Assembly: GCA_964433345.1 (NCBI GenBank) | Contig: CAYSQJ010000005.1 | Span: forward strand, 40,440 to 104,439 | From: an uncultured Bordetella sp. | Lineage (GTDB): Bacteria; Pseudomonadota; Gammaproteobacteria; Burkholderiales; SG8-41 | DNA length: 64,000 bases | Direction of reading: 5' to 3' | Part shown: piece by piece, positions 20,285-36,354 of the stretch | Position numbering within the stretch: position 1 is the stretch's first letter | Layout: each line of letters starts with the position of its first letter | Translations under genes and position numbers: made by a program | The notes under the pieces: generated by a model | Seen by the model: the letters and a program-made list of their open reading frames with translations, nothing else | What the model was told of the DNA's origin: nothing | Databases searched by the model: none

Positions 20285-21886
20285 TCAGTCCTTCGACGGC
20301 GCCAGCGCGGCAACGCCGCGTCCGGCGATGCGTCCGGTGACAAAACACTCCGCGATGTTGCCGCCGGAGAGATAGAGGTGGCCGAAGGAGCTGCCGAGTT
20401 CGCCGGCGGCGTAGAGGCGGGGAATCGGCCGGCCGTGCACGTCGATCACCCGCGACTGCGCGTCGTGGACAGGACCGCCCTGGGTGTTTGAAATGACCGC
20501 CCACACCGGCGCGCCGTAGAAAGGGCCTTTTTCAATCGGCAGCATGCTGTTGGCGGGGCGTGAGTGGTCCTCGTCGCGTCCGGCAGCACATTGCGCGTTC
20601 CAGCGCTTGATCGAGGCGGTTACAGCCACCGGATCGAGGCCAAGCTGGCCGGCGAGTTCTTCCAGCGTGTTGGCGCGCTTGAGGATGCCGTTCCCGACTT
20701 CCTTCAGGTTGTCGTCGCTCCAGTCGTAACGCAGTCCCTCGTCGTTCGAGGTCGCCTTGCCCAGCGGGTACAGCCTGCGCCCGTTGTCGTCACAGATGAT
20801 GTAGGCGGGGTTGCGCGGCGCGCGCTGGGTGACCGGATCGAAATGCCCCAGCGGGCGTACCGCGGTGTCTTGGGTATAGGGCTGGTATTCGGACATGAAG
20901 CGTTTGCCTGAAGCATCGAGCAGTATCCACGCCATCTTCAGTTTCACCGCGTCCTCGTCGCCCGGGAACCAGTCGGGAAAGCGCTTGACGCGCATGCCGT
21001 AGGGATAGGCCGGATCACTGTGGCGGAAACCGTAGGCACCGTGCACATGCCACATGTGCCACAGCGCGGCGCCGAGGTCCTGCGCCATGCGGATGCCGTC
21101 GCCGGTGTTGTGGCGCGCAGCGGCGTTGAACACCGGGTAGGTTTCGAGGAATTGCGCCTTCATCTCGGCATTGCCTTCGAAGCCGCCGGTGGCAAGCACC
21201 ACGCCGCGGCGCGCGCGGATGTGTCGCGGCTTGCCTTCCTGCATCACGGTGATGCCGAGCACTTCGCGTGTCACCGGATCGCTGATCAGGCGCGTCGCGG
21301 CGACACCGAGCCGCACTTCGACGCCGGCCTTCAGCACGTTGTCGTGGACCACCTTGAACAGCTTGGGGCCGTTGGGCGCGCCATTGGCCCAGGGGTAGGC
21401 CTCGCCTGCCCTGAAACCGGGAATGTCGACGACCGAGGTGTGATAGAAGGTGTTGGTGCCGGGCAGCGGATAGTTGCCGCGGATCTGGCGGCGGTAGGGA
21501 TCGCCCGCCTTTTCGCGCTCCGCATTTTCCTCGACCGAGGTGAGCACGCGGGCATCGCAGATTTGCGCCAGTTCGCGGACATAAGCCTCCAGTCCGCACA
21601 TGCCTTCGGCCAGCGCGCGCACGACTTGGTCCGGTGTGCGGCCGCCGTTGGTGGCCTTGAGATAGGCATAGGCCTGCTCCGGGTCATGCGCGCTGCGCAC
21701 CGCGCCATAGGAGCAGATCGACAGTCCGCCGGGCACGGTGGACTTCTCGATCAGCAGGGTTTTGGCGCCGGCCTGTGCTGCATTGAGTGCCGCGATGCCG
21801 CCGCCATGGCCGAAGCCGGCGACGACGACGTCGAAGGTTTCCGTGAATTCCATTTTGACTTTCAATGTTGGATGATCAGTGGTCAT
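20285..21886 (-). CDS. FAD-dependent oxidoreductase (FAD_binding_2 / fumarate reductase-KstD-like flavoprotein)
   Basis: 533 aa. N-terminal FDVVVAGFGHGGGIAALNAAQAG dinucleotide fold and C-terminal LYAAGELG block. ATGA overlap with 21883..22818. Confidence 0.75.
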   Translation of the reverse strand: MTTDHPTLKVKMEFTETFDVVVAGFGHGGGIAALNAAQAGAKTLLIEKSTVPGGLSICSYGAVRSAHDPEQAYAYLKATNGGRTPDQVVRALAEGMCGLEAYVRELAQICDARVLTSVEENAEREKAGDPYRRQIRGNYPLPGTNTFYHTSVVDIPGFRAGEAYPWANGAPNGPKLFKVVHDNVLKAGVEVRLGVAATRLISDPVTREVLGITVMQEGKPRHIRARRGVVLATGGFEGNAEMKAQFLETYPVFNAAARHNTGDGIRMAQDLGAALWHMWHVHGAYGFRHSDPAYPYGMRVKRFPDWFPGDEDAVKLKMAWILLDASGKRFMSEYQPYTQDTAVRPLGHFDPVTQRAPRNPAYIICDDNGRRLYPLGKATSNDEGLRYDWSDDNLKEVGNGILKRANTLEELAGQLGLDPVAVTASIKRWNAQCAAGRDEDHSRPANSMLPIEKGPFYGAPVWAVISNTQGGPVHDAQSRVIDVHGRPIPRLYAAGELGSSFGHLYLSGGNIAECFVTGRIAGRGVAALAPSKD

Positions 21887-22818
21887 TCAAAAACGGGCAG
21901 GGTGGCGCCGGGTGCCTGGAACAGCACGAAACCGCCGACCGTGCCCGGCCATTCCAGCAGCAGGCGCCCGGAGATGTTGCGCACCTGGCACTGAGCATCG
22001 TCGAGATGTCGCCGTGTCGCGTCGAGGTCATCGCTGCTCAGCACATAGCCGGCGATCCAGGGCAGCGACGGTGCCTGCATGCCCAGCGTGCGCTGCAGTG
22101 CCGCGGGAGTGACGAAGAGCAGGGCGCCCCGCTGGCTGTCGATGCGCCACAACGATCCGCTCACCTGCGCCAGCAGGCCGGTGAAACGCGCATAGCGCTG
22201 CGCGGCTTCCTGCGGATCCTCAACGCATACGATCACTGCCGCCAATCCGCGTGCGCGGTTGGCGTGCGCGGTCCATCGCGGCTGCCACAGCAGTTCGGGC
22301 GTGTGCTGCTGGCAGTACTGGATGCGGCCTTCGGCCATGGTGCCCGGGGGCACGCGGACTACGGTGAAGCGCGCGGTGCCGCTGCCGCTGACGTTATCGA
22401 TGCAGGTGCCGATTTCGCGCTGCAGGGCCACGGCTGGGAGCGGTGCGAAGCCGTTTTTCTCCAGTCGCGCATGGTCGGCACCGGCTTCGGCGGTGCCGAA
22501 GGCGATCAGGTGCATGCCGGTGTAGCGCTGGATGGCCGCGCGCAGCTGCTCGGCGATCGGCGTGTCGCCGGTAGGTGTCAGGAACTCGAGGTAGCCTTCG
22601 CGCAGCATCACGCAGCGATTGCCGGCGCCAGCCGGTACCAGCGGACCGCCGGGTTCCAGCCGGTGTGATTGCGCCGAAAACGGCGTCAGCGTGAAGCCGG
22701 CCTGTTCCAGAGCCGCGCTGGCGGCATCGATGTGCGGCACGAAGTGGGCGACATGGTCGATGTTGAGCCTGCCGGTGGATGGCGACTGGGACGCGGGGTT
22801 GGTGCCGGTGGCCGTCAT
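21883..22818 (-). CDS. VOC/glyoxalase-like domain protein
   Basis: ORF 21883..22974. The ATG at 22818 shares one base with the upstream stop. IDHVAHFV...GFTLTPFS and GYLEFLTP blocks resemble glyoxalase-like domains. The call is tentative. Confidence 0.55.
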   Translation of the reverse strand: MTATGTNPASQSPSTGRLNIDHVAHFVPHIDAASAALEQAGFTLTPFSAQSHRLEPGGPLVPAGAGNRCVMLREGYLEFLTPTGDTPIAEQLRAAIQRYTGMHLIAFGTAEAGADHARLEKNGFAPLPAVALQREIGTCIDNVSGSGTARFTVVRVPPGTMAEGRIQYCQQHTPELLWQPRWTAHANRARGLAAVIVCVEDPQEAAQRYARFTGLLAQVSGSLWRIDSQRGALLFVTPAALQRTLGMQAPSLPWIAGYVLSSDDLDATRRHLDDAQCQVRNISGRLLLEWPGTVGGFVLFQAPGATLPVFE

Positions 22819-23816
22819 CAGTAGCCCAGCTTCGGGTCGATGCGCCGCTTCAGCCGCTTGCCGGCGAGAAACAGCGCCAGGTTTTCGAACCAGAGATCGA
22901 TCGTGATGTCGGCGTAATGCTCGCCGTCGTCGCAGGAAACATGCGGGGTGATCACCAGGTTGGGCGTGCTCCACAGCGTGGCATTGGCGGGCAGGGGTTC
23001 GGGATCGACAACGTCGAGCACCGCACCGGCGAGCCGGCCGCTGCGCAGGCGTTTTTCCAGGGCAGCCTGGTCGATCACCGGGCCGCGTGCGATGTTGATG
23101 ACGCCGGCCGAGGGTTTCAGCAGGTCCATGCGCGCGGCGCTGAGCAGGCCGCGGGTTTCCGCGGTCAGCGGCACCGCAAGCACGACGAAATCGGCCTGTG
23201 GCAGCACGCGGTCGAGCTGGCGGTAAGTCACCACGCGGTCGACATGGCGGTTTTTCTGCACGCTGCGCCGCACGCCGATGACCTTGAGGCCGATCTTCTT
23301 CGCGGCGCGGGCGGCAGCCTCACCGAGATCGCCGAGGCCGATGACCACCGCCGTCCTGCCGGTGATGCTGGGCGAGTACAGCGCCTCCCAGCGGCGAGAC
23401 TGCTGGTTGGCCATGACCGCAGCCATCCGCGAGTTGAGCAGGTGATAGGCCATGGTCATGTACTGCTCGGCCTTGTGGCCATGCGCGCCGCTGTTGTTGG
23501 TGAACACCGTGCCGCGAGGTAGCCAGTCGAGCGGCAGCACGCCGTCTATGCCGGCCGAGGTCGAGTGAATCCATTTCAGCCGGGGCGCACGCAGTGCGAA
23601 CCTGTCGCGGTCGGCCGGCAGGCCGATCACCAGGTCGGCATCGGCCAGCGCGGCTTCCAGGATGTCGCCGTCCCAGCCGAAGCTGACCTTGCCTATGTGC
23701 CGGGCCAGCGCCCGGTGCCGCTTGCAGGCTGCAGCCCAGTGCTGCGGCAGGATGTGCGAAATGCCGTTTTTCCGGCGCGTGTTCTCGATGTGCAGCTTCA
23801 GTTTCTTCGTTGTCAT
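22818..23816 (-). CDS. D-2-hydroxyacid dehydrogenase family (NAD-binding)
   Basis: 332 aa with VIGLGDLGEAAARAAKKIG Rossmann motif, INIARGPVIDQAAL and ITPHVS (catalytic His) blocks. Confidence 0.75.
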   Translation of the reverse strand: MTTKKLKLHIENTRRKNGISHILPQHWAAACKRHRALARHIGKVSFGWDGDILEAALADADLVIGLPADRDRFALRAPRLKWIHSTSAGIDGVLPLDWLPRGTVFTNNSGAHGHKAEQYMTMAYHLLNSRMAAVMANQQSRRWEALYSPSITGRTAVVIGLGDLGEAAARAAKKIGLKVIGVRRSVQKNRHVDRVVTYRQLDRVLPQADFVVLAVPLTAETRGLLSAARMDLLKPSAGVINIARGPVIDQAALEKRLRSGRLAGAVLDVVDPEPLPANATLWSTPNLVITPHVSCDDGEHYADITIDLWFENLALFLAGKRLKRRIDPKLGY

Positions 23817-24000
23817 GCCACTTGATTGATCTGTTTGGGGTGCCGGCAGTGCTGGCCCGGCCCGCGCACTGCCGCCATCGGCACGGCGATCATGCCGGAC
23901 GGCGGAGCGGCGTCGACTTGCCCGAGTTTACATTTTTCGAGGCGCCGCCCGGGCGAGCGCGCCGGAATCCGCATGAATGTTCTGAACTGCGGTGTTCATC

Positions 24001-25623
24001 TCAGGTGCTTTTCACCGGCGGCTTTGCCGCGAAAGCCGAGTCGCGCAGGCACATGCGGCCGCGCGGGTCCTGCCACAGCTTGCCGTCCTCGTGCAGCTTG
24101 CCCAGTGCGCGGGCCACCGTTTGGAAGTCGTAGTCGGCGAATTGCTCGGCGAGCTCCGAGTAGTATTTCGGGATTTTCTCGATGACCGCGACGATCTTGG
24201 CCGACAGCTCGGCCACCGCCTTGTCTCCGGAGGCCACTGCCGGCGCCGGGTCGGCCTTGCCGCTGTAGTAGTCGGCGATTTTGGCGCGGTCGGTGTAGGC
24301 GTAGGAAATGCGCTCGAAACGCTCCTTGGGAATGCCCTCGGAAATCGTCGCGTCTATGCCGACCTTGGCGCCCGTCGGCACCACGCCATGGGGCATCACC
24401 GGCAGGCTGGGATCCAGCGGCTTGGCGCGGCTGCCCGGGATCACCATCACGTCCTTGTCGCCCTGCACGCGGGTGGCGATCGCCCACTCGACATCCATCG
24501 CGTTGAACACGTCGATGTCGTCGTCGACCACCACCACGTGTTTCAGGTCCATCACCGACAGCGCGGCGAGCAGGGCGTTCTTGCCTTCGCCGGCCTGCTT
24601 TTTGATGGAAATGATGGCATGCCACATGCCGCAGCCGCCGAGCGTGACGTTGATGTCCTTGATCTGGATGCCGGCGGTTTTCAGTGCGCGGCGGATCTGG
24701 GTGTAACGCGTCGGCGCCATCAGCCAGGTGTTTTCCCAGGGCATGTGCAGCGCGTAATAGATTGCATCCTTGCGCATGGTGATGGCGTTGATGCGCACCA
24801 CCGGATTCCAGTGCAGGCCGCCCATCAGCCGGGTGAATTCGCCGAAGCGGCCTTCGGGCTGGGTCCAGCCGGTCGGCAGGATCTCGCCTTCGAGCACGAT
24901 CTCGGAATCGGCGATGCATGGCAGGTCTATGGTTTCGCACTGCGCGAGTTCGATCGCCGCGCCGCGGATGCCGCCGGCGATGCCCATCTCGTCGGTGCCC
25001 AGCGGGGCGCGGAAGCCTGAGCCGAGGTTCTCGAAGGGATGGTTTCCGATCGAGATCGAGATCGGGCAGGGCCGGCCCGCCTCGTAGGCGCGCTGAGCAA
25101 ACAGCCGCATGTTGTTCGGCGTGACGATGTCGATGCCGGTGAGGTTCTTTTCCTTGACCATGAAGCGGTAGATGCCGGAATTGAGGCCGAACTCCGGATC
25201 CTTGGCGATGGTGATGCCGGCGGTGATCATCGGCCCGCCGTCGTAGATCGAGAACATGGGGATCGGCAGGCTGAACAGGTCGACGTCCTTGCCGGTCCTG
25301 ATTACCTGTTTCAGCGGGGCGTTTTCGACGTAGCGCGGGGGTATCGGATTTTCGATGCCCTGCTGCAGCCGGAATTCGATTTCGGGATAGGTTTCACAGC
25401 CCATCGACATGATTGCTCGCTTCTGCGAGCGGATGATGCCGGAGACCACCGGCATGTCGTAGCCGATGACCTTGTGGAACAGCAGTGCCTTGTCGGACTG
25501 GTCGACCAAGGTCGCAATGTGCCGGCTGTCGACCGGCTGCTTGATGTCGACGAGCTCCTTCTCGGTGCGCAGCCTGTCGAGGAAACCGCGGAAATTTTCG
25601 TCGGCGTAGGGCAGGGGTTTCAT
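24001..25623 (-). CDS. UbiD-family (prenylated-FMN dependent) decarboxylase with ~75-aa C-terminal extension
   Basis: 540 aa with UbiD blocks throughout (ALLFHKVIGYDMPVV, GIYRFMV, GRFGEFTRLMGG, VVVVDDDIDVFN). Stop overlaps the ubiX start region (25620-25623). Confidence 0.85.
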   Translation of the reverse strand: MKPLPYADENFRGFLDRLRTEKELVDIKQPVDSRHIATLVDQSDKALLFHKVIGYDMPVVSGIIRSQKRAIMSMGCETYPEIEFRLQQGIENPIPPRYVENAPLKQVIRTGKDVDLFSLPIPMFSIYDGGPMITAGITIAKDPEFGLNSGIYRFMVKEKNLTGIDIVTPNNMRLFAQRAYEAGRPCPISISIGNHPFENLGSGFRAPLGTDEMGIAGGIRGAAIELAQCETIDLPCIADSEIVLEGEILPTGWTQPEGRFGEFTRLMGGLHWNPVVRINAITMRKDAIYYALHMPWENTWLMAPTRYTQIRRALKTAGIQIKDINVTLGGCGMWHAIISIKKQAGEGKNALLAALSVMDLKHVVVVDDDIDVFNAMDVEWAIATRVQGDKDVMVIPGSRAKPLDPSLPVMPHGVVPTGAKVGIDATISEGIPKERFERISYAYTDRAKIADYYSGKADPAPAVASGDKAVAELSAKIVAVIEKIPKYYSELAEQFADYDFQTVARALGKLHEDGKLWQDPRGRMCLRDSAFAAKPPVKST

Positions 25624-26243
25624 TGTTTCTTCTTGTCCTTCAGTTCGGCCGGGCCGGTGACGCCGGCCCAGCGGTTGATGGTGTCGTGTTCGACATCGAA
25701 CAGGTCGAGTACCCGGCCGACCGTGTGATTGACCAGGTCATCGATGGTCTTGCCACCGCTGTAGAAGGCCGGCACCGGCGGGAAAATGATGCCGCCCATC
25801 AGCGTCACAGCCTCCATGTTGCGGATATGCGCCAGGTTCAGAGGCGTTTCGCGGGTGATCAGCACCAGCCGGCGACGTTCCTTGAGAATCACGTCGGCGG
25901 CACGGGTGATCAGATTGTCGGCGAGGGCGTGGGCAACGCCGCCCAGGGTTTTCATCGAGCAGGGCGCGACCACCATGCCGGCGGTGATGAAGGAACCGCT
26001 GGCGATGGTGGCGCCGATGTCGCGGACGTTGTGGGTGACGTCTGCGAGCCTGTGCAGCGCCTTGCGGTCCATGCCGTATTCCTGGAAGGCATTGAGCACT
26101 CCGGCCTCCGACACCACGAGATGGGTCTCCCAGCCGCCGATTCCGCGCAGGCGCTCGAGGATGCGGATGCCGTAGACGGAGCCTGAAGCGCCGGTCATCG
26201 CGACGATCAGGCGCCGGGGCGTCGTCTTGTGCGGTGCATTCAT
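25620..26243 (-). CDS. ubiX: UbiX-family flavin prenyltransferase
   Basis: 207 aa with RLIVAMTGASGSVYGIRILERL and VVAPCSMKTL blocks. Translationally coupled to the UbiD-family gene. Confidence 0.85.
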   Translation of the reverse strand: MNAPHKTTPRRLIVAMTGASGSVYGIRILERLRGIGGWETHLVVSEAGVLNAFQEYGMDRKALHRLADVTHNVRDIGATIASGSFITAGMVVAPCSMKTLGGVAHALADNLITRAADVILKERRRLVLITRETPLNLAHIRNMEAVTLMGGIIFPPVPAFYSGGKTIDDLVNHTVGRVLDLFDVEHDTINRWAGVTGPAELKDKKKQ

Positions 26244-26470
26244 TGCTCTGCCTCTTTCATCCAGCGGAACAGGTGGTTTCGAGCGGACACAGGATGCCCG
26301 CCTCGAGGATGGCCATCACAGTCAACAGCGTCAACGTCCGGGCAAATGCATTGCCGGTCCGGATCGGGTCCGTTACCTGGCGCAGCCGGTATCCTACACT
26401 GCCCCGCGAGCCTGACGTCCCGGCGGGGGTGAGGATGCGGCTTCCGGGGACTTCGGGCATTTGCGGAGAT

Positions 26471-26593
26471 GGTGACTGGTAAATGGTGATTGGGGGGGGC
26501 GGGGTGATCAAGTCACCAGGTGATTGAGTGACTGGTGATGATGCTTCGGTTTTACCTAATCACTTAATCGCTTAATCACCTGATCACCGTCAC
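26471..26593. repeat. Word-periodic palindrome built from GTGAT/GTGAC words (contains a G8 run)
   Basis: Left arm GGTGACTG-GTAAATG-GTGATTGG...GGTGATCAA-GTCACCAG-GTGATTGA-GTGACTG-GTGATGATG and right arm CTAATCAC-TTAATCGC-TTAATCAC-CTGATCAC-CGTCAC. Overlaps the stop of 26590..27018. Confidence 0.7.
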
Positions 26594-27018
26594 TTGGGAG
26601 GCGCCGTGAAGTAGGTGCCGCGGCCGCTGGCGACCAGTGCGCCGTCCTTGTCGTAAACGTAGGCCTCTGCGGTCGAATACTGGCTGCCGCTGCGAACGAC
26701 CCGGCCCTTGGCGGTCAGGTCGCCGGGCATTGCGGCCTTGTGGTAATCGACGCGGATGTCGATGGTCGGTACCGGGCGGCCGAGCTGGGCGGCGATTGCG
26801 TAATCGGCGACGACGTCGACGATCGCGGCGAGGATGCCGCCGTGGGTATATTTCCGATCGGGGTTGACCACCCATTCCTCGCGCCAGGCGGCCTTCACTT
26901 CGATGCCGTCTTCACCGGCCTTGAGGAAGGTGAAGTTCAGCCACTGGTTGAAGGGGCCGCGGCTGATCAGTTTCTGCAGTTGTTCGAGGCTGGGAGGGGT
27001 GGGTTTGCTGTCGGTCAT
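26590..27018 (-). CDS. PaaI-family hotdog-fold thioesterase
   Basis: 142 aa. The HGGILAAIVDVVADYA block is typical of PaaI/YbgC-like thioesterases. Confidence 0.75.
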   Translation of the reverse strand: MTDSKPTPPSLEQLQKLISRGPFNQWLNFTFLKAGEDGIEVKAAWREEWVVNPDRKYTHGGILAAIVDVVADYAIAAQLGRPVPTIDIRVDYHKAAMPGDLTAKGRVVRSGSQYSTAEAYVYDKDGALVASGRGTYFTAPPK

Positions 27019-27081: not shown

Positions 27082-28617
27082 TCATGCCGCCGATGAATTC
27101 TTCTCGGCACGCTGTGCCGCGATTTCGCGCAGGCGCAAGCGATCAACCTTGTTGGTGCCTGCCAGCGGCAGCTGGTCGAGGAAAAACACGCGCCGCGGGT
27201 GCTGGTAGGCGGGGCCGTGGGCGAGTGCATGCTGCTTGAGCTCTTCCTCGCCGGCGTTCTTCCCGGCGCGCAGCACGACGAAGGCGTAGGGAACCTGACC
27301 CTTCAGCTCATGCGCGAAAGGCAGCACGCAGGCCTGGTGCACGGTCGGGTGCTTCTCCAGCAGGCGCTCGACCTCGATCGGGAAAATGTTTTCGCCGCCG
27401 CAGACGAACATGTCATCGGTGCGGCCGACGAAGAAATAGAAGCCGTCGGCATCGCGGCGGCAGACGTCGCCGCTGTGATACCAGCCGCCGGCCAGCCGCT
27501 TCTCGGTTGCTTCCGGCAGGTTGTGGTAGCCGATCAGGATGCCGGGGTTGCGCAGCAGCAGTTCGCCTTCGTCGGGATGCGGGCCGTTGACCAGCTTCGC
27601 CTCGGTGCCGGGATAGGGCACGCCGATCGAACCCGGCGGTCGCGGCTTGCCTTCCGGGTGCGGTCCCAGCGGCACCGGGCCGCCCTCGGTGACACCGTAG
27701 ACCACCAGTGGTTCGGCGTTGGGGAAATGCCTGCGGATGTCGGCGAGCAGCTGCGGCGAGGAGGGCGCAGAGCCCATCATCACGGTGCGCACCGAGGTCG
27801 TATCGGTTTTTGCCAGCAGGTCGCTGCGGGCGAGCAGCATCGAGATCATCGTCGGCACGCCGGAGATCACCGTGCAGCGGTAGCGCGAAAGCGCGGCGAG
27901 GTAGCCCTCGACGCTGAACTGCGGCATCAGCACCATCTTCGCGCCGGCAGTGAGGCCCTGCTTGATCGCGTTGAGCGCGTTCTTGTGATACAGCGGTGCC
28001 GCAACCAGGATGACATCCTTTTTCGATGTGCCGCGGGTATGCGCAAGGATGCGCCGGCTCCAGTTCTGGCCGTAGTGGGTCAGCAGCACACCCTTGGGCT
28101 TTCCGGTGGAACCCGAGGTGTAGGGCTGGATCGCGACAGTGTCCGGGGCCGGCTCGAAAGGCGAGTAAGCGCCGGGATCGAGGAATCGCGACCAGGCATC
28201 GCCGTCGTCATAGACCACCGTGCGGGCATCGGCAGGCAGCAGGTGGCGCCAGGCCGTCTCGCAGAACACCAGTTTTGCGCCGGCATCGTCGACGATGTAA
28301 CGCACGGTGTCGGCGGCGAGCTTGATGTTGATGGGAACCGGCACCATGCCGGCGCGCATCGTGCCCAGCAGTGTGATCACGAATTCGGCGCGGTTCAGGG
28401 CAAGTATGCCGACGCGGTCGCCGGGCTTGAGCCCGCTGCGCTCGAGACCGCGCGCGAGCGCATTGCAGGCGGCATCAAGCTCGCTGAAGCCGTATTCGCG
28501 CGGCGCTGACGCATCTCGCAGGTCGACCAGTGCCGTGCGCGCGAGGCTGGAATGATCGGCGAAAGGCGCGCCGAGGTTGCCGGCGTAGCCGCGGGGTTCG
28601 GGGCAGGGGATGGTCAT
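27082..28617 (-). CDS. AMP-dependent acyl-CoA synthetase/ligase
   Basis: ORF 27082..28638 (TTG). ATG at 28617 preferred. AMP-binding signature YTSGSTGKPKGV and C-terminal GWYHSGD and PLAGTNKVDR blocks. Confidence 0.8.
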   Translation of the reverse strand: MTIPCPEPRGYAGNLGAPFADHSSLARTALVDLRDASAPREYGFSELDAACNALARGLERSGLKPGDRVGILALNRAEFVITLLGTMRAGMVPVPINIKLAADTVRYIVDDAGAKLVFCETAWRHLLPADARTVVYDDGDAWSRFLDPGAYSPFEPAPDTVAIQPYTSGSTGKPKGVLLTHYGQNWSRRILAHTRGTSKKDVILVAAPLYHKNALNAIKQGLTAGAKMVLMPQFSVEGYLAALSRYRCTVISGVPTMISMLLARSDLLAKTDTTSVRTVMMGSAPSSPQLLADIRRHFPNAEPLVVYGVTEGGPVPLGPHPEGKPRPPGSIGVPYPGTEAKLVNGPHPDEGELLLRNPGILIGYHNLPEATEKRLAGGWYHSGDVCRRDADGFYFFVGRTDDMFVCGGENIFPIEVERLLEKHPTVHQACVLPFAHELKGQVPYAFVVLRAGKNAGEEELKQHALAHGPAYQHPRRVFFLDQLPLAGTNKVDRLRLREIAAQRAEKNSSAA

Positions 28618-28644: not shown

Positions 28645-28769
28645 GTCAAAAACTTAGCCACAGAGGACGCAGAGTTCACAGAGAAAACCCGAAGACACCC
28701 GAAAGTGGCGGAGGATTATCCGTTACGAGCTTTTACTCCGTGTCCTCTGTGCTCTCTGTGGCCAAAAGG
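28645..28769. repeat. Word-periodic palindrome built from CACAGAG words
   Basis: GTCAAAAACTTAGCCACAGAG-GACGCAGAG-TTCACAGAG ... CTCCGTGTC-CTCTGTGCT-CTCTGTGGC. Homologous to 60205-60312 in the opposite orientation. Confidence 0.8.
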
Positions 28770-28779: not shown

Positions 28780-29784
28780 TCAAGGCGTAATCACGACCTT
28801 GCCGAACACCTCGCGGTCCTCGATCAGCTTGAGGCCCTTGGCGGCATCCTGCAGTGGCATCACCTCGTCGACCACCGGCTTCATCTTGCCCTGCTGGATC
28901 AGGTCCATCAGCGCCTTCAGGTTTTCGTCGTAGAAGCTGTTGGAGCCGATGATCTGCAGTTCGAAGCTCCAGACGTAGCGCAGGTCTTCCTTGGGGTCGT
29001 AGCCGGCAGTGGCGCCGCAGACCAGGATCTTGCCGCCGCGCTTGACGCATTTCAGCGTCGGCGCCCAGGTGTCGCCGCCGGTGAAGTTGATGACAACGTC
29101 GACGCCGCCCTCGTAGTTGCGGCGCTGCGGCTTGCCGAATTTTTCGATGGCCCACTTCGAGAAATCGGTGGTCTTGTAGTTGATGACATGGTCGGCGCCG
29201 AGATCCTTCAGGCGCTGGATCTTGTCCTCGCTCGAGGCGCAGGCGATGACTTCGGCGCCGAGCATCTTGGCGAGCAGTACGCAGCCGGTGCCGACACCGC
29301 CGCTGGCGCCCAGCACCAGCACCTTGTCGCCCTTCTTGATCGTGTTGTGGGTGATGATCATGCGGTGCGCGGTGCCGTAGGCGACCGGCAGCGAAGCGGC
29401 CTGTTCGAAGCTGACGTTTTCGGGCATCTTGATCAGCTGGTCGGCGGAGACCAGGCATTTCTCGGCCAGTCCGCCATGCATCATCTCGCCCATCAGGCCC
29501 TTTTTCTTGTTCAGCGGGTTGACCAGCACGCGGTCACCCGGTTTCCAGCCGGAAACGCCGGCGCCCACTTCGAGAATCTCGCCGGCGAGGTCGAGGCCGA
29601 TGATCATCGGGAACGGCACCTTGATGCCGGGCATGCCGCGCACCGTGAATACGTCGTGGTAGTTGAACGAGGTCGCCCTGACCCGGATCACCACATGGCC
29701 TTCGCAGACCACCGGATCGGGAAAGTCGGTTACGTATTCCAGTTTGTCCAGACCGCCATGTTCCCGAAGTACGACTGCTTTCAT
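28780..29784 (-). CDS. MDR-superfamily (zinc-type ADH / quinone oxidoreductase-like) reductase
   Basis: ORF 28780..29982. ATG at 29784 gives MKAVVLREHGGLDKLEY. Cofactor motif VLVLGASGGVGTGCVLLAK. Confidence 0.8.
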   Translation of the reverse strand: MKAVVLREHGGLDKLEYVTDFPDPVVCEGHVVIRVRATSFNYHDVFTVRGMPGIKVPFPMIIGLDLAGEILEVGAGVSGWKPGDRVLVNPLNKKKGLMGEMMHGGLAEKCLVSADQLIKMPENVSFEQAASLPVAYGTAHRMIITHNTIKKGDKVLVLGASGGVGTGCVLLAKMLGAEVIACASSEDKIQRLKDLGADHVINYKTTDFSKWAIEKFGKPQRRNYEGGVDVVINFTGGDTWAPTLKCVKRGGKILVCGATAGYDPKEDLRYVWSFELQIIGSNSFYDENLKALMDLIQQGKMKPVVDEVMPLQDAAKGLKLIEDREVFGKVVITP

Positions 29785-30368: not shown

Positions 30369-31064
30369 TTAATGGTTCTCCGCGACGATAGCGAGGTTCA
30401 TCACTGAGTCGCTGTTGAGGATCGCCTTCAGCACCATGTCGCGTGCGGCCTCGATCTGCTCCTGGCAGATTTTTTCCGCGGTCGCGCCGTCACCGCGCAC
30501 CAGCGCGCGCACCAGCGTGCGGTGCTCGTGCTGCATTTCCTGGGTGCGGTTGCGAAAGCCGAGGCCGAGGTGCAGAAGGCGGGTCATTTCGTCCAGCAAC
30601 TGGGCGATCGCATGGGCGAGCCGGGCGTTGCCCGAGGCCTGGGCAATCGCGACGTGGAATTCCTTGTTGGCTTCGAGGAAGCGCGCGGTGCTCTTCGGCT
30701 CGCCCGACTGGTAGCCGGCGCGGCAGATCTCGTCGAGCACGCGCAGCCGCTTGGCGTCGACCCGGCCTGCGGCGAGACGCGCGGCGCGCGGTTCGAGCAG
30801 CAGGCGCAGCTCAAAAACATCCTGGATGTCCTTGAGCGTGACCGGGGCCACCATGTAACCGCGACGCGGCATCGCGCGAACCAGCCCGTCGTGGGCGAGG
30901 CGGGACAGTGCCATGCGCACCGGCGCCTTGCCGAGCTTGTACTGTTCACAGAGCTGCGCTTCGGACACCTCGGCGCCCGGCGCGATCAGGCAGCAGATGA
31001 TGTCGTGCTTGACGCGTTCGTAGGCGCGCTCGCTGAGCAGGGGGATGGTTTTTGCGGCAGTCAT
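30369..31064 (-). CDS. GntR-family transcriptional regulator (FadR/FCD subtype)
   Basis: 231 aa. N-terminal wHTH (SEAQLCEQYKLGKAPVRMALSRLAHDGLV) and a C-terminal all-helical FCD-like domain. Confidence 0.85.
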   Translation of the reverse strand: MTAAKTIPLLSERAYERVKHDIICCLIAPGAEVSEAQLCEQYKLGKAPVRMALSRLAHDGLVRAMPRRGYMVAPVTLKDIQDVFELRLLLEPRAARLAAGRVDAKRLRVLDEICRAGYQSGEPKSTARFLEANKEFHVAIAQASGNARLAHAIAQLLDEMTRLLHLGLGFRNRTQEMQHEHRTLVRALVRGDGATAEKICQEQIEAARDMVLKAILNSDSVMNLAIVAENH

Positions 31065-31091
31065 TCCAATGAAATCTTAGAAATGAAAGTC

Positions 31092-31257: not shown

Positions 31258-32448
31258 ATGCCCGGCCCGTGGACGGTCGTTGCCGTCGCCACTTTTGCGC
31301 AGATGATGATCGCGATGTCGAACATCCTGCTGCCGACAATCGCACCCAAACTGGCGGAGGCACTGGGCGTCAGCCCGATCCTGATCGGCTACCAGGTCAG
31401 CCTGACCTTCGGCGTGGCGACGGCGGCGACGATGTTCGGCGGCAAGGCGGTGCTGCGTTACGGTGCGGCACGTGCCACGCAGATCTCGGTGCTGTGCTGC
31501 GGTGTGGGACTTGCGCTGTTCGCGCTGCCGCATGTCGCGGCGATCGCGCTCGGCTCGGCCGCGGTGGGCATGGGCATGGGGTTGCTCAATCCTGCGGCAG
31601 CCCACATGCTGGTCAGCTATACGCCGCCGCAGCGGCGCAACATCATGTTTTCGATCAAGCAGACCGGCGTGCCGGTCGGCGGCGTGATCACTGCGCTGAC
31701 CGCGCCGGCGATCGCGGTGAATTTCGGCTACCGCTGGTCGCTGCTGATGGTGGGGCTGATGATTTTCGCCATTGTGCTGGTGCTTCAGCGTTATCGTGAA
31801 GTATGGGACGCCGACCGCGGCAGGGTGCAGCAGGGAGGCGGTGCGGCTTTCGGCGGTGTACCCCTGGTCTGGGGACAGGCCGACCTGCGCTGGATGTCGC
31901 TGGTGGCGATGATCTTTTCGGCGATCCAGCGCATCGTGCTGAGCTTCACCGTGATCTACCTGGTGGCCGAAGGGCGTTACGGACTGGTCGAGGCCGGCGT
32001 CATGCTGTCGGTGGTGCAGATCGGCGGCTCGGCCTCGCGCATCTGCTGGGGCTGGCTCGCCGACCGGATGGGCAGCAGCCTGCAGGTGCTGATGATCATC
32101 TGCGGCCTGACCATCACGTCGACACTGCTGCTGGCGCTGTTCGATCCGGAATGGAATCGGCTCCTGGTCTATGTCCTGTTTTTCGTGATCGGCACGACCG
32201 CGGTGGGCTGGAACGGCGTGTTCCATGCGGAGGCCGCGCGGCTGAGTCCGCCGGGCATGGCCAGCGTGGTGGCGGCAGGCACCACCTTCTTCGTGTTCGG
32301 GGGGGTTCTGGTGGGGCCTGCGGCATTCGCAGCGGCCCATGGCGGCATCGGCAGCTATGGCAATACCTTCCTGCTGGTGACCGCCGCGGCCGTGGCCGCT
32401 TTCGGCCTGCTGTTGATGGCGCAGCGGGCCGCGCGGAAAAATCGATGA
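31258..32448 (+). CDS. MFS transporter, tandem paralogue 1
   Basis: ORF 31168..32448. ATG at 31258 aligns with the paralogue N-termini. Conserved PPQRRNIMFSIKQTGVPVGG. Confidence 0.75.
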   Translation: MPGPWTVVAVATFAQMMIAMSNILLPTIAPKLAEALGVSPILIGYQVSLTFGVATAATMFGGKAVLRYGAARATQISVLCCGVGLALFALPHVAAIALGSAAVGMGMGLLNPAAAHMLVSYTPPQRRNIMFSIKQTGVPVGGVITALTAPAIAVNFGYRWSLLMVGLMIFAIVLVLQRYREVWDADRGRVQQGGGAAFGGVPLVWGQADLRWMSLVAMIFSAIQRIVLSFTVIYLVAEGRYGLVEAGVMLSVVQIGGSASRICWGWLADRMGSSLQVLMIICGLTITSTLLLALFDPEWNRLLVYVLFFVIGTTAVGWNGVFHAEAARLSPPGMASVVAAGTTFFVFGGVLVGPAAFAAAHGGIGSYGNTFLLVTAAAVAAFGLLLMAQRAARKNR

Positions 32449-33644
32449 GCGCTGCCGCACCTTCCATCGTGGTGGTGGTGCTGGCGACCACCGCCGCGCA
32501 GATCGCCTCGGCGATGGGCATCGCGATATTTCCGGTGCTGGCACCCCAGCTCGCGCAGATGCTCGAAGTCGACGCCTCGGCGGTGGGATACCTGATCAGC
32601 ATTCTCTTCGGCGCAGCGATGCTCGCCTCGGGCGCGGTCGGCACCGTGGTGCTGCGCTGGGGCGCCTGCCGCGCGATGCAGTGGTCGCTGTGGGTCTGCG
32701 CTGCCGGCATGGCGGCGGGACTGGCGGGCAAGCTGTGGCTGATGCCGGTGGCGGCGATATGCAGCGGCATCAGCACCGCATTGGCGGCGGCCGGCGCCGC
32801 GCACCTGCTTTACCGTTTCGGGCCGCCGCAGCGGCGCAACCTGGTTTTTTCGATCAAGCAGACCGGCGTGCCGCTGGGCTGGGCAACCATCGCGCTGCTC
32901 GCGCCGGTACTGACCGTGGCCTTCAGCTGGCGGGTTTCGATGTTCGTGGTGCTCGCGTATTCGGTGGCGGGGGCGCTGCTGCTGGAGCGCTGGAGGATGC
33001 ATTGGGACGATGACCGGGATCCCGGCGCCGCTTCGCGCACCAACCTGCTCACCGGCATCGGCGTGCTGTGGCGTTATCCGACGCTGCGCTACCTGGCGAT
33101 GGCGGGCTTTTTCTTTTCCTTTGTCCAGCTTTGCCTGGGCACGTTCACGGTGAACCTGCTGGTGCAGGAGGCCGGCTACGGCCTGGTGGCCGCCGGCGCG
33201 ATGCTGTCGCTGGTGCAGGTTTCGGGCATGGCGGGGCGGCTTGCTTTCGGCTGGATCGCCGATCGCAGCGGGATGGCGCTCGCGGTGCTGGCGCTGACCA
33301 GCCTCGCGGCCGCAGTGGGCTGCGTCGCCAGCCTGTGGATCGCCAGCCGCCCGCCGGTGGCGGCGCTGGCGGTGTTCTATGCCTTGTTCGGTGTCGCGGC
33401 TTACGGCTGGAACGGCGTGATGCACGCGCAGATCGCGAGGTTGAGCCCGCCGGGGATGGTCAGCGTGGCGACCGGCGGCATCATGGTGTGGATTTTCGGC
33501 GGCATCCTCGCCGGCCCCGCGCTGTTCGCGGCGGCGTATCGCGGCATCGGCAGTTATGCCGACACTTTCGGGCTGCTCGCGGTGGCCGCGCTGGCCAGTG
33601 CAGCGCTGGCGGCAGCGGCGGCGCGCGCGGAGCGCAGCCCGTGA
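32445..33644 (+). CDS. MFS transporter, tandem paralogue 2
   Basis: Lies in ORF 31803..33644. ATG at 32445 overlaps the upstream TGA (ATGA). Conserved PPQRRNLVFSIKQTGVPLGW. Confidence 0.75.
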   Translation: MSAAAPSIVVVVLATTAAQIASAMGIAIFPVLAPQLAQMLEVDASAVGYLISILFGAAMLASGAVGTVVLRWGACRAMQWSLWVCAAGMAAGLAGKLWLMPVAAICSGISTALAAAGAAHLLYRFGPPQRRNLVFSIKQTGVPLGWATIALLAPVLTVAFSWRVSMFVVLAYSVAGALLLERWRMHWDDDRDPGAASRTNLLTGIGVLWRYPTLRYLAMAGFFFSFVQLCLGTFTVNLLVQEAGYGLVAAGAMLSLVQVSGMAGRLAFGWIADRSGMALAVLALTSLAAAVGCVASLWIASRPPVAALAVFYALFGVAAYGWNGVMHAQIARLSPPGMVSVATGGIMVWIFGGILAGPALFAAAYRGIGSYADTFGLLAVAALASAALAAAAARAERSP

Positions 33645-34867
33645 CCCCGGCATCCACGCCTCCCTTCGCTACGGTGGCCGCGGTGGTGGCGGCCACCACC
33701 GCGGCACAGGTTGCCGGCGCGATGGGCGCTGCGGTGTTCCCGGTGATCGCGCCGGAGCTGGCGCGTGCGCTGGATGTCGAGGCCTCGCTGATCGGCTACC
33801 AGATGAGCGTGATCTACGGCGCGGCGATGCTGGGATCGATGCTGTTCACCTGGATGGTGGCGCGTTACGGCGGCTGCCGCACCACCCAGATCGGCATGGC
33901 CTGCTGCGTCACCGGCATGGCGGTGGCCCTTCACGGCAGCATCACCGCACTGTTGTTCGCCTCGGTGCTGATCGGCGTTGCGATGAGCATCAACCTCCCG
34001 GCAGCCGCGCACCTGCTGTTCCGCTACAGCCCGCCGCAGCACCGCAATTTCATTTTTTCGCTGAAGCAAACCGGCGTGCCGCTGGCCTGGGCGCTGATGG
34101 CCTTGATCGCGCCGGCGGTGACGCTCGCCTTCGGCTGGCGCTGGGCGCTGGCACTGGTGCTGGTCTCGGCGCTGGCAACGCTGCTGGCGATGCAGCCGGC
34201 GCGCCGCCGCTGGGATGATGATCGCCGTCCCGATCTGCCGGTGCAGGCGCGGGTGTTTGACGGCGTGTTGCTGGTCTGGCGCATGCCGGCGCTGCGCTTG
34301 CTGGGTGTGGCTGCATTCTGCCTCGCCTTCATCCAGCTTTGCGTGAGCACCTTCACGGTGGTGATGCTGGTCGGCGAGGGTGGCTACACGCTGGTTGAGG
34401 CCGGACTGATGCTGTCGGTGGCGCAGATCTTCGGCGTGCTCGGGCGCATCGCCTGGGGCTGGCTCGCCGATCGCAGCGGCGACTGCCTGGAGGCCCTGCA
34501 ATACCTCACCCTGGGCTCGATCGCCTGCTGCGGCGCGGTGTTTTTCCTGCAGCCCGGTTGGCCGGTGGCGGTGACCGGGTTGCTGTTTGCAGTGCTCGGC
34601 GCGACCGCAATCGGCTGGAACGGACTCTATACCGCCGAGGTTGCACGGCGCAGTCCGCCGGGACAGGTAAGCCTCGCCACCGGTGGCGCGATGGTGTGGA
34701 ACTTCGCCGGCATTCTGACCGGGCCGACCGCTTTCACGCTGGTCTACAAGCTGACCGGCAGCTATGCGACGACCTTCGGCATGGTCACCGTGATTGCGCT
34801 GCTGACGCTGGTGGCGCTGCATGCCGGGCGGCGCGTGCTGCGCGGGGAGGGCCATGCTGGTGGATGA
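33641..34867 (+). CDS. MFS transporter, tandem paralogue 3
   Basis: Lies in ORF 33068..34867. GTG at 33641 overlaps the upstream TGA (GTGA). Conserved PPQHRNFIFSLKQTGVPLAW. Confidence 0.7.
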   Translation: MTPASTPPFATVAAVVAATTAAQVAGAMGAAVFPVIAPELARALDVEASLIGYQMSVIYGAAMLGSMLFTWMVARYGGCRTTQIGMACCVTGMAVALHGSITALLFASVLIGVAMSINLPAAAHLLFRYSPPQHRNFIFSLKQTGVPLAWALMALIAPAVTLAFGWRWALALVLVSALATLLAMQPARRRWDDDRRPDLPVQARVFDGVLLVWRMPALRLLGVAAFCLAFIQLCVSTFTVVMLVGEGGYTLVEAGLMLSVAQIFGVLGRIAWGWLADRSGDCLEALQYLTLGSIACCGAVFFLQPGWPVAVTGLLFAVLGATAIGWNGLYTAEVARRSPPGQVSLATGGAMVWNFAGILTGPTAFTLVYKLTGSYATTFGMVTVIALLTLVALHAGRRVLRGEGHAGG

Positions 34868-35606
34868 CCTGTCGCTGTGGCAGATGCTGTTCTGCGCGGG
34901 GGTTGTAACGGTCGCCTTCGCGGTGCGCGGCGGTACCGGTTTCGGCGGCGGCGCGGTGGCGGTGCCGCTGCTGGCGCTGGTGTTCCCGGTGCAGGTGACG
35001 GTGCCGGTGGTGACCGTGCTCAACATGCTGTCCTCGGTGGGCCACGGCGTGGTCGACTGGCGCCATATCGTCTGGCGCGAGATCTGGCGCATCCTTCCCG
35101 GCAGCCTGCTCGGCGTGTTCTTCGGCATTTACCTGTTGACGCTGATCGATACGCAGCCGCTGGCGCGCGCGCTCGGCGTGTTTGTCGTGCTCTATGCGCT
35201 GTACGTGATGGTGTTTGCCGGCCGCACGCCGGCCATTCCGCCGCGCTGGATGCTGCCGGTGGCGGGCGTGACCAGCTTCTGCGCCGGCATCGTCGGTTCG
35301 CTGTTCGGCGGCGCGGCAGGACCGATCTACGTGATCTACCTCAACTCTGCGCGCCTTGCCAAGGACGCTTTCCGCGTGACCATCACCACGGTGATGCTGT
35401 TCCAGGGGCTGACGCGCATTGCCGGCTATGCCTCGCTGGGCCTCTATGACCGCCAGGTGATGCTGCTGCTGGCGGCGGCATTGCCGATGATGATCGCCGG
35501 CTCCTGGCTGGGCGCGCGGCTGGTGCGGCGCTTCGATCAACGGCTGTTTCAACGCGCCCTCGGTGCGGTGCTGCTGGTCAGCGGCACCGCGCTGGCGCTG
35601 AAGTAG
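34854..35606 (+). CDS. TauE/SafE (TSUP) family sulfite-exporter-like membrane protein
   Basis: ORF 34821..35606. ATG at 34854 overlaps the preceding MFS gene by 14 nt. Blocks GGTGFGGGAVAVPLL and GSLFGGAAGPIYV are typical of TSUP proteins. Confidence 0.8.
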   Translation: MLVDDLSLWQMLFCAGVVTVAFAVRGGTGFGGGAVAVPLLALVFPVQVTVPVVTVLNMLSSVGHGVVDWRHIVWREIWRILPGSLLGVFFGIYLLTLIDTQPLARALGVFVVLYALYVMVFAGRTPAIPPRWMLPVAGVTSFCAGIVGSLFGGAAGPIYVIYLNSARLAKDAFRVTITTVMLFQGLTRIAGYASLGLYDRQVMLLLAAALPMMIAGSWLGARLVRRFDQRLFQRALGAVLLVSGTALALK

Positions 35607-35610
35607 GGCT

Positions 35611-36354
35611 ATGCCGGGATTCGACGCCTTCCAGCTGGCTTGGATCGCCGGCTCGGTTTTTGTTGCCTTCGTGGTGCGCGGCATGTCCGGTTTCGGTGCC
35701 GGCATGATTGCCGTGCCGCTGCTCGCTTTCGTGATTCCGCTGCAGCTGGCGGTGCCGCTGTGCAGCCTGCTGGTGTTCGTGCTGTTCGTGATTCTGGTCA
35801 TCCGCGACCGCCGGGAAATCGTCTGGGACGAGTTGCGCCTGCTGCTGCCGCCGACCATCGTCGGCGCGCTGGCCGGGCTGTGGCTGTTTGCGGTGCTCGA
35901 CAACCGGATGCTGGTGCTGCTGCTGGGCTGCTTCCTGATCCTGTATTCGCTGTACATGCTGGCTGTCAGCACGCTGGGCCTGCCGCAGCTGCGCTGCTCG
36001 CAGCGCTGGGCCTTGCCGGTGGGTTTTACCGGCGCCTTTTTCGACACGCTGTTCGGCGGGGGCGGTGGAACCCTAGTGGTGATCTACATCAATGCCCGGG
36101 GTGTCAGTCGTGCGGGATTTCGTGCGACCGTCGCGGCGCTGTGGTTTGCGGAGATGGTGGCCCGTATCGGCGGATACGCCTGGTCGGGTTATTACGACAA
36201 GGGCACGCTGCTGCTGTTCCTGCTGCTGCTGCCCCTGATGTGGGTCGCCACTGTGACTGGCGAGCGCCTGGGCAACCGCGTCAGCAGCGAGACCTTTTCA
36301 CGGATCCTGGCACTGATGCTGCTCGCCAGCGGCGTGAGCCTGCTGCTGAAATGA
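35611..36354 (+). CDS. TauE/SafE (TSUP) family membrane protein, second tandem copy
   Basis: 247 aa with GMSGFGAGMIAVPLL and DTLFGGGGGTLVV blocks. Confidence 0.8.
   Translation: MPGFDAFQLAWIAGSVFVAFVVRGMSGFGAGMIAVPLLAFVIPLQLAVPLCSLLVFVLFVILVIRDRREIVWDELRLLLPPTIVGALAGLWLFAVLDNRMLVLLLGCFLILYSLYMLAVSTLGLPQLRCSQRWALPVGFTGAFFDTLFGGGGGTLVVIYINARGVSRAGFRATVAALWFAEMVARIGGYAWSGYYDKGTLLLFLLLLPLMWVATVTGERLGNRVSSETFSRILALMLLASGVSLLLK

Follow-up and report, generated by a model that had tools for sequence, protein, structure and literature searches.

In Variovorax paradoxus TBEA6 and Advenella mimigardefordensis a 3-sulfinopropionate route leads from 3-mercaptopropionate to 3-sulfinopropionyl-CoA and employs the 3-mercaptopropionate dioxygenase Mdo, a CoA-transferase or SucCD, and the desulfinase Acd. 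Anaerobic phthalate degraders possess phthaloyl-CoA or isophthalyl-CoA decarboxylase systems (8oz5), in which CoA activation, a UbiD-like and a UbiX-like protein are encoded in one cluster. In the HmfF/HmfG system (6h6v; hmf cluster of Cupriavidus basilensis) the UbiD-type 2,5-furandicarboxylate decarboxylase HmfF has an adjacent UbiX partner, HmfG, and genes for an acyl-CoA synthetase, for transporters of the major facilitator superfamily (MFS) and for TctC-type proteins are found nearby (PMC8091172). Here we compare with these systems a gene array in a 64,000-nucleotide stretch of DNA from an uncultured Bordetella sp. (contig CAYSQJ010000005.1 of assembly GCA_964433345.1, positions 40,440 to 104,439), which as a whole is referred to as the window. 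On the minus strand the array encodes a GntR regulator, a cupin of the thiol dioxygenase family, a reductase of the medium-chain dehydrogenase/reductase (MDR) superfamily, an acyl-CoA synthetase, a PaaI-type thioesterase, UbiX, a UbiD-family decarboxylase, a 2-hydroxyacid dehydrogenase, a VOC metalloprotein and an FAD flavoprotein. The initial annotation had proposed it as a candidate pathway for a sulfur-bearing carboxylic acid.

The array shares with the 3-sulfinopropionate route a thiol dioxygenase and the CoA activation of a carboxylate, but it has no acyl-CoA-dehydrogenase-type desulfinase, and UbiD/UbiX, the VOC protein, the dehydrogenase and the flavoprotein would be without a role there. 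CoA activation together with UbiD-like and UbiX-like proteins is common to the array and the phthaloyl-CoA systems; however, the UbiD protein is only distantly similar to phthaloyl-CoA decarboxylase, and the hosts are here probably aerobic Burkholderiales, some of them with Rieske oxygenases in the cluster. HmfF is the closest solved relative of the UbiD protein, and the neighborhood of UbiX, synthetase, MFS and TctC genes is the same. In contrast to the hmf system the window UbiD carries an Asn for His296 and an extension of about 85 amino acids, HmfABC and HmfH are lacking, and MDR reductase, VOC protein, 2-hydroxyacid dehydrogenase and flavoprotein are additional. A literature search for a cysteine-dioxygenase-type enzyme in combination with UbiD gave nothing relevant, in agreement with the earlier remark that no described pathway linking a thiol dioxygenase and a UbiD/UbiX decarboxylase was known to the annotator. 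Likewise, we found no description of HmfF/UbiD with a CoA ligase and a thioesterase, or of UbiD/UbiX with a tripartite tricarboxylate transporter (TTT), that matches the cluster. All parts belong to known families, assembled around a decarboxylase dependent on prenylated flavin mononucleotide (prFMN) and accompanied by a new thiol dioxygenase subtype; the combination of an HmfF-clade decarboxylase with CoA-thioester chemistry in probably aerobic bacteria was not found described.

We favor with moderate confidence that the array is one conserved chromosomal catabolic island, divided into several transcription units, for a carboxylic acid with its carboxyl group on an sp2 carbon ((hetero)aromatic or acrylic-type, possibly a dicarboxylate), and that the cupin is accessory to it. 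This is because a UbiD decarboxylase, acting on an sp2 carboxylate, is combined with a module for CoA-dependent ene reduction (ligase, MDR reductase and thioesterase) and with a coupled trio for hydroxy/oxo acids (2-hydroxyacid dehydrogenase, VOC protein and flavoprotein). Overlapping stop and start codons link UbiX to UbiD, the three genes of the trio to each other, and the neighboring MFS genes.

In order to assess conservation, the UbiD protein was compared with a one-genome-per-species collection, which yielded 529 related stretches; locus comparisons refer to the best 80 of these. Apart from a few doubtfully labelled records, all 80 originate from metagenome-assembled genomes of uncultured Burkholderiales/Betaproteobacteria. 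All window proteins were aligned with these loci by tblastn to obtain a synteny table. The order of genes is constant: MDR reductase, synthetase, thioesterase, UbiX, UbiD, 2-hydroxyacid dehydrogenase, VOC protein and flavoprotein, followed in most loci at the same position by a TctC gene on the opposite strand. This core order is kept at UbiD identities between 75 and 98%, and the MDR reductase is the most conserved protein of the cluster (78–99% identity). We further examined 79 high-quality genomes of the window's family, counting matches with E below 1e-150 as UbiD orthologues. Such an orthologue is present in 74 of them. When counting all sampled genomes of each genus, UbiD was found in all 32 genomes of the window's genus (g1), in 20 of 29 genomes of genus g3, in 28 of 32 of g4 and in all nine of g5. 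Because of the constant order and the orthologues in 74 of 79 genomes, the array is a unit that has been passed on vertically and that characterizes the family, and not a chance neighborhood. Its near-universal occurrence suggests that the substrate is probably a common natural compound, the turnover of which has not yet been assigned to a pathway. The cluster-bearing family occurs in lake, soil, groundwater, compost and wastewater metagenomes, and the window stretch itself is nearly complete in wastewater, activated-sludge and compost metagenomes of several studies.

Between the core genes the cluster is variable. Additional recurrent genes were collected by clustering the open reading frames (ORFs) of the 80 loci, followed by family annotation. 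The closest relatives of the window, L001 and L002, are laid out just as compactly. Most other versions carry a NitT/TauT-type ABC transporter: an intact permease of 270 amino acids lies between thioesterase and UbiX in 38 loci, and an ABC ATPase (31 loci) and a binding protein of the SsuA/NMT1 family (34 loci; PDB matches at family level only) are found between UbiD and the 2-hydroxyacid dehydrogenase. A Rieske oxygenase is present in 15 loci, with subunits resembling AndAc and AndAd of anthranilate dioxygenase (419 and 161 bits, both under the cut-offs), a RidA-type gene in 10, a YjgF-like gene in six and a LysR regulator in some. Examples of AndAc/AndAd-like pairs or RidA/YjgF genes between the binding-protein and VOC genes are L039 (13433–15248), L046 (6729–8490), L061 (13967–14362) and L068 (11738–12205). 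These insertions hint at an amino-aromatic or N-heterocyclic substrate in the respective lineages. The dipicolinate (dip) cluster of Alcaligenes faecalis was considered because of the GntR regulator and these hints of an N-heteroaromatic substrate; it was rejected, as its key enzyme is a monooxygenase, UbiD is unmentioned and the DipR motif GTATAC is unlike the palindrome at the locus.

The following sequence of steps is conceivable for the island. The substrate would be taken up by a TctC-dependent TTT system and the MFS triplet, or by the NitT/TauT-type ABC transporter in other lineages, under the control of a GntR/FCD repressor. UbiX would supply prFMN, and the HmfF-clade UbiD would remove one carboxyl group. 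The remaining carboxylate would be activated by the synthetase, which resembles 4-coumarate- and feruloyl-CoA ligases, the MDR reductase would reduce a C=C bond conjugated to the thioester, and the PaaI thioesterase would release or proof-read the CoA ester. The resulting hydroxy or oxo acid could then be directed towards central metabolism by the 2-hydroxyacid dehydrogenase, the VOC metalloenzyme and the FAD oxidoreductase, which are tightly coupled. The cupin, presumably co-transcribed with the regulator, would oxidize a thiol-bearing substrate variant or a thiol by-product to a sulfinate and would not serve as the entry enzyme.

The individual enzymes have the following family matches. UbiD passes the curated cut-off of its family (TIGR00148, 307.6 versus 244.85 bits), and UbiX, located directly upstream, would by its family be the prFMN supplier for UbiD. 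The MDR reductase is probably an enoyl-thioester reductase: it aligns end to end with the NCBIfam models of acryloyl-CoA reductase and crotonyl-CoA reductase, though under their cut-offs, and its PDB matches are 2eih followed by the Ccr family. The best PDB matches of the synthetase are feruloyl-CoA synthetase and 4-coumarate-CoA ligases (E = 1e-60). The 2-hydroxyacid dehydrogenase matches NF041369 with 189 bits, under the cut-off. For the flavoprotein, matches below cut-off to the KstD, flavocytochrome c and TcuA models and a PDB match to urocanate reductase (E = 1e-30) identify a putative C=C oxidoreductase of the fumarate-reductase/KstD/urocanate-reductase type. The VOC protein has no sequence match in the PDB. 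Its AlphaFold2 model (pLDDT 87.7) displays a two-domain VOC fold with VIA-align Z scores of 21 to 3p8a, an uncharacterised Staphylococcus aureus protein, of 18–20 to 4-hydroxyphenylpyruvate dioxygenase and hydroxymandelate synthase, and of 16–17 to extradiol dioxygenases; the N-terminal domain alone matches methylmalonyl-CoA epimerase with 10.6. Residues H22, E78 and E163 are strictly conserved, H103 almost strictly.

Several observations weigh against the catabolic island as proposed. The functions of its genes are taken from family matches, and the order of steps follows from the family names only. MDR reductase, synthetase, 2-hydroxyacid dehydrogenase and flavoprotein all score under the curated cut-offs of every named NCBIfam equivalog, so that any assignment of their substrates is tentative. 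For the VOC protein the activity of a dioxygenase is as conceivable as that of an epimerase or isomerase, since the fold search does not separate these, and UbiD could act on a CoA ester instead of the free acid, or run as a carboxylase. Internal gaps of 85–346 nt with stable hairpins mean that there are several transcripts. Contigs of two wastewater metatranscriptomes cover UbiD, thioesterase, synthetase, MDR reductase, cupin, GntR, 2-hydroxyacid dehydrogenase and TauE genes and bridge the MDR/cupin and cupin/GntR junctions; at a depth of 2–7 DNA carry-over is possible, so that they hint only weakly at expression and do not prove how the genes are grouped in operons. In a further metatranscriptome (X23) only short fragments map to the stretch. 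Finally, some versions of the cluster combine the cupin with TauE and an SsuA-type ABC transporter, which would fit a sulfur pathway.

The cupin deserves closer consideration in this respect. Its best sequence matches in the PDB are 3-mercaptopropionate dioxygenases from Pseudomonas aeruginosa and Azotobacter vinelandii (4tlf, 3uss, 6xb9) with E values of 1e-21 to 1e-19 and an identity of about 30–32%, while the similarity to mammalian cysteine dioxygenase (CDO, E = 1e-5) and to mercaptosuccinate dioxygenase of Variovorax (MSDO, 8vni, E = 1e-3) is much weaker. A Foldseek search with the AlphaFold2 model (pLDDT 94.6) gave a TM score of 0.84 over about 154 columns and an rmsd of 1.7–1.8 Å to 4tlf, 6xb9 and 4wvz, and the top 43 matches are all thiol dioxygenases. 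In the alignment H82, H84 and H132 pair with the three-His iron ligands H89, H91 and H142 of Mdo; the metal ligands that the initial annotation had wanted checked on a structural model are thus present. Likewise S144, H146 and Y148 pair with S155, H157 and Y159 in the Ser-His-Tyr motif, which also exists in CDO. These six residues and Arg55 are invariant in the orthologues from 23 loci and in 39 homologues from a database, with identities reaching down to 36%. Taken together, fold and conserved residues place the cupin in the thiol dioxygenase family. Its active site looks intact, and we predict a functional thiol dioxygenase.

At two positions the cupin departs from Mdo and agrees with CDO. 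Arg55 replaces Gln62 of Mdo and corresponds to Arg60 of CDO and Arg66 of MSDO, both of which bind the substrate carboxylate (bioRxiv 10.64898/2026.05.19.726356). Cys88, found in at least 90% of the same sequences, takes the place of Gly95 of Mdo and corresponds to Cys93 of CDO, which forms the Cys93-Tyr157 cross-link; a cross-link in the window protein is putative, and the change of Gly95 to Cys in Mdo is known from the artificial cross-linked variant 4wvz. No cupin residue is clearly aligned with Arg168 of Mdo: it pairs with Thr157, and the nearby R161, which is nearly invariant, is at most a possible counterpart. The marks of the Gln-type Mdo subtype (Gln62 and Arg168) are accordingly not seen in the cupin. 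Furthermore, it is shorter than Mdo (164 versus about 200 amino acids) and is missing the C-terminal lid region. It belongs to a distinct, new subfamily of short proteins (164–170 amino acids) with Arg55 and Cys88. The subfamily is small, comprising 78 clusters in a large protein database, nearly all of them unnamed metagenomic sequences. A short Mdo-like scaffold with the Arg and Cys that mark CDO could help to reveal in what way the two residues govern the choice of substrate, and whether the Cys-Tyr cross-link is in use among bacteria.

The cupin gene is present in 29 of the 79 high-quality family genomes, always beside the GntR gene. Considering all sampled genomes of a genus, it occurs in 23 of 32 genomes of g1 and 15 of 32 of g4, and in none of the 29 and nine genomes of g3 and g5. 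Among 43 loci that include DNA upstream of the MDR gene, 23 contain the cupin gene, always between the GntR and MDR genes, and 20 do not; in at least 22 genomes other than that of the window it lies on the same contig as UbiD at a distance of 4–8.4 kb. Of the 19 cupin-bearing loci that extend 4.5 kb or more upstream of the MDR gene, 18 also have the GntR regulator. Locus L004, with a UbiD identity of 94%, has neither GntR nor cupin gene, whereas loci at 75% identity keep both, which points to repeated loss of the cupin. The cupin is accessory, variable between lineages and outside the conserved core.

A dedicated pathway for a thiol- or sulfur-bearing carboxylic acid, in which the cupin produces a sulfinate, sulfite is set free through CoA activation and subsequent steps, and the TauE pair exports it, is unlikely in the light of this distribution. 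An intact active site under purifying selection, with Arg55 at a carboxylate-binding position, would agree with it, as would the precedent of a CoA-dependent sulfinate route in Variovorax and Advenella. About 17 loci have TauE genes next to the core, and one contig from a metagenome unites the cupin gene, a pair of TauE genes and an SsuA-type ABC system in a single cluster. However, the cupin was not found in 50 of the 79 family genomes, of which 74 have a UbiD orthologue, and UbiD has no obvious role in such a pathway. Export of sulfite or sulfonate by the TauE proteins, as initially suggested, is backed by family membership (PF01925, 129.9 and 127.1 bits versus a cut-off of 32.6) but not by any sulfur specificity: there is no match to an NCBIfam equivalog, and the family is generic, with 12 genes in the 3.49-Mb genome of the organism and matches in 13 of 14 control genomes. 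When loci reaching 4.5 kb or more upstream of the MDR gene are counted, TauE occurs in 10 of 15 without and in 6 of 19 with the cupin, many cupin-bearing flanks ending before the TauE place. A positive association of cupin and TauE was not seen (Fisher p = 0.08 with a negative trend), the 10-kb flanks often ending before this position. Transporters of the TauABC type and tctC are also reported beside hmf furan clusters (PMC8091172), and names such as “sulfite exporter TauE” or “sulfonate ABC transporter” are by themselves no evidence of sulfur metabolism. As had been noted before, Pfam scans detect no desulfinase-type acyl-CoA dehydrogenase among the genes of the array, the rest of the genome not having been searched for one; a gene of the sulfite oxidase family is found elsewhere in the genome. 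From the cupin counts, the TauE genes in cupin-less loci, the generic nature of TauE and the SsuA-type ABC genes beside hmf clusters we therefore conclude that sulfur chemistry is an accessory feature and not the demonstrated purpose of the array. Of the originally proposed pathway, a thiol dioxygenase within the cluster remains, while the cupin is not part of the core and TauE and ABC genes are not sulfur-specific.

A quite unlikely extension would be that unsaturated or heteroaromatic carboxylates containing sulfur (for example thiophene-carboxylate-like, mercapto-aryl or mercapto-acrylic acids) are degraded by an aerobic route not described so far. Here prFMN-dependent decarboxylation and CoA-thioester reduction would expose a thiol, the Arg/Cys-type dioxygenase would form the sulfinate and the TSUP pair would export sulfite; lineages without the cupin would use the core on oxygen or nitrogen analogues.

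The window contains a second thiol dioxygenase gene (about 60324–60938, minus strand), and this product of about 204 amino acids is of the canonical 3-mercaptopropionate dioxygenase type with a Y-Q-Q-Y-L-L motif and a Gly at the cross-link position. It belongs to an operon at 58447–62077 (minus strand) together with an adjoining family III CoA-transferase (60935–62077), an enoyl-CoA hydratase (59459–60184) and a PIG3-type MDR protein (58447–59526). A canonical Mdo-like gene next to a CoA-transferase in the same window could be counted in favor of the sulfur reading of the array. The operon looks like a candidate 3-mercaptopropionate/3-sulfinopropionate route; it resembles the described route more than the main array does and is the better fit for sulfur chemistry.

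Turning to UbiD, the nearest solved structures are HmfF (6h6v, E = 9e-79) and then AroY (9e-52), phthaloyl-CoA decarboxylase reaching only 6e-21. In the alignment with HmfF the segment G-R-F-G-E-F pairs with G-P-F-G-E-Y and N-S-G-I-Y-R with N-V-S-I-H-R; by this pairing the residues of the E/D-R-E ionic network, among them a catalytic Glu and an Arg, appear to be kept. The C-terminal extension past the HmfF alignment (24001–24260; the alignment ends at residue 453 of 540 in the query and 447 of 448 in HmfF) is kept in the orthologues, the median length of which is 540 amino acids in the 80 loci.

A logic as in phthaloyl-CoA decarboxylation, where the synthetase first converts a dicarboxylic acid into its mono-CoA ester, the substrate of decarboxylation by UbiD, is rather improbable given that the similarity to phthaloyl-CoA decarboxylase is so much weaker than that to HmfF. 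Synthetase, UbiX and UbiD do lie within one conserved block wherever all three occur, a thioesterase is at hand for product release, and the same genome encodes a second, paralogous synthetase-UbiD pair with TAXI-TRAP genes on another contig. However, L061, L066, L068 and L072 keep UbiD, MDR reductase and cupin but show no match to the synthetase.

The proximity to HmfF, the UbiX partner, the MFS and TctC-type proteins, the TauABC-type and tctC genes beside hmf genes and the occurrence in compost and wastewater metagenomes would all be expected from a variant furan pathway (HMF or 2,5-furandicarboxylate) in which UbiD/UbiX would correspond to HmfF/HmfG, the synthetase would activate furoate as furoyl-CoA synthetase and the thioesterase would hydrolyze the CoA ester at the end. 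We regard this as very improbable. Neither the molybdenum furoyl-CoA dehydrogenase HmfABC nor the oxidase HmfH was detected by Pfam among the genes at 15.6–37.9 kb or among the recurrent families of the 80 loci, and MDR reductase, VOC protein, 2-hydroxyacid dehydrogenase and flavoprotein are without counterpart in the hmf pathway. Furthermore, His296/297 sets furan specificity in HmfF, whereas Asn aligns with His296 of PtHmfF in the window UbiD, as it does in the pyrrole-2-carboxylate decarboxylase PA0254 (PMC7976604). This Asn may be a lead to N-H heteroaromatic or other non-furan substrates but is no proof of them.

That the array is a mere juxtaposition of two or three operons unrelated to each other is highly improbable: gaps of 85, 141–162, 184 and 346 nt with stable hairpins and a promoter-like site upstream of the MDR gene would allow for it, but order and orientation of the sub-blocks are kept at 75–98% UbiD identity across most genera of the family, and the sub-blocks have stayed together although transporter, Rieske and RidA genes have entered between them, genes which vary while the core order stays. 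The initial annotation had considered two or three adjacent operons on account of hairpins noted at 26471 and 28645. Both hairpins are real and coincide with inverted repeats, and the gaps exist, yet all sub-blocks behave as one conserved unit. As RNA the first repeat would fold with -35.1 kcal/mol (z = -3.6), and its word pattern occurs four times against 0.27 expected; the second reaches -56 kcal/mol (z = -4.6). The best sigma-70-like promoter match of the region (31102–31074, minus strand, TTGACA-17 nt-TAAGAT) is located just upstream of the GntR gene.

Gene calls are based on an ORF listing and on Pfam and NCBIfam scans of the window proteins, and junctions were read from the sequence. All genes named in the initial annotation were recovered at their positions (Table 1), with start codons corrected in three cases. 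For the MDR reductase an ATG with a GGAGA Shine-Dalgarno sequence at 29784 replaces a longer ORF reaching 29982, and the fourth MFS paralogue, previously started at 17826, begins upstream of that position. The cupin ATG does lie 4 nt past the GntR TAA. The short overlaps reported earlier were found as ATGA for UbiX/UbiD and VOC protein/flavoprotein and as 1 nt for 2-hydroxyacid dehydrogenase/VOC protein; the MFS triplet overlaps by 4 nt each (32445/32448 and 33641/33644). The larger gaps on the minus strand separate cupin and MDR genes (85 nt), MDR and synthetase genes (141–162 nt), thioesterase and UbiX genes (346 nt) and UbiD and 2-hydroxyacid dehydrogenase genes (184 nt). The coordinates also agree with the description of three MFS and two TauE genes diverging from the GntR promoter side.

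Table 1. Features of the array and its flanks in window coordinates.
Feature	Position	Strand	Family match and remarks
Fourth MFS gene	17799–19040	plus	
TctC/Bug solute-binding protein	19274–20260	plus	PF03401; convergent with flavoprotein gene
FAD_binding_2 flavoprotein	20285–21886	minus	PF00890
Two-domain VOC (Glyoxalase_3) metalloprotein	21883–22818	minus	PF13468; start corrected to ATG 22818
D-isomer-specific 2-hydroxyacid dehydrogenase	22818–23816	minus	PF02826
UbiD-family prFMN decarboxylase, HmfF clade	24001–25623	minus	PF20695, PF01977, PF20696 (UbiD_N, UbiD, UbiD_C)
UbiX flavin prenyltransferase (makes prFMN)	25620–26243	minus	NF004685, 268.8 bits (cut-off 188)
Remnant of NitT/TauT ABC permease, last ~69 codons	26243–26445	minus	Directly upstream of UbiX
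Inverted repeat of 8-nt periodic words	26503–26588		29-nt arms, 76% complementary; in the scar of the lost permease
PaaI-type hotdog thioesterase	26590–27018	minus	PF03061; TIGR00369, 71.6 bits (cut-off 36.6)
AMP-forming acyl-CoA synthetase	27082–28617, or to 28638 with upstream TTG	minus	PF00501, PF13193
Long inverted repeat	28654–28765		34-nt arms; between MDR and synthetase genes
MDR-superfamily NAD(P)H reductase	28780–29784	minus	ADH_N, ADH_zinc_N
CDO_I thiol-dioxygenase-family cupin, 164 aa	29870–30364	minus	PF05995
GntR/FCD-family regulator	30369–31064	minus	PF00392, PF07729; first gene of the minus-strand array
Three tandem, translationally coupled MFS paralogues	31168/31258–32448, 32445–33644, 33641–34867	plus	PF07690 in each; divergent from GntR gene
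Two TauE/SafE (TSUP) membrane proteins	34854–35606, 35611–36354	plus	PF01925 in each

The gap between thioesterase and UbiX genes (26244–26589) is not a plain spacer and holds the remnant of an ABC permease. It corresponds to residues 202–270 of the permeases of L062 and L013 (tblastn, 48–51% identity, E = 1e-13). The ATPase and binding-protein genes, which flank UbiD elsewhere, are wholly gone from the window, and the lineage of the window has lost the ABC system. Of the remaining transporters the MFS triplet matches, weakly, the NCBIfam families of aromatic-acid/H+ and galactonate transporters, and the PDB matches of the TctC protein include BugE, Bug27 and terephthalate-binding proteins, at family level only.

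Two relatives of array genes were noticed outside clusters of this type. In L081 (1080–6207) a cupin homologue with 48% identity stands outside any UbiD cluster and adjoins an MFS gene. It is divergent from an MDR gene, a TctC gene and the gene of a probably secreted protein of 426 amino acids, for which neither a matching family nor a related protein of the window was found. On contig 10 of the organism's own genome (L098, 29000–48000) a paralogous UbiD gene with 36% identity directly follows another AMP-forming acyl-CoA synthetase gene. The genes that come next encode a binding protein of the TAXI type and a TRAP membrane protein of the fused DctM kind, and an AraC regulator gene lies in the vicinity.

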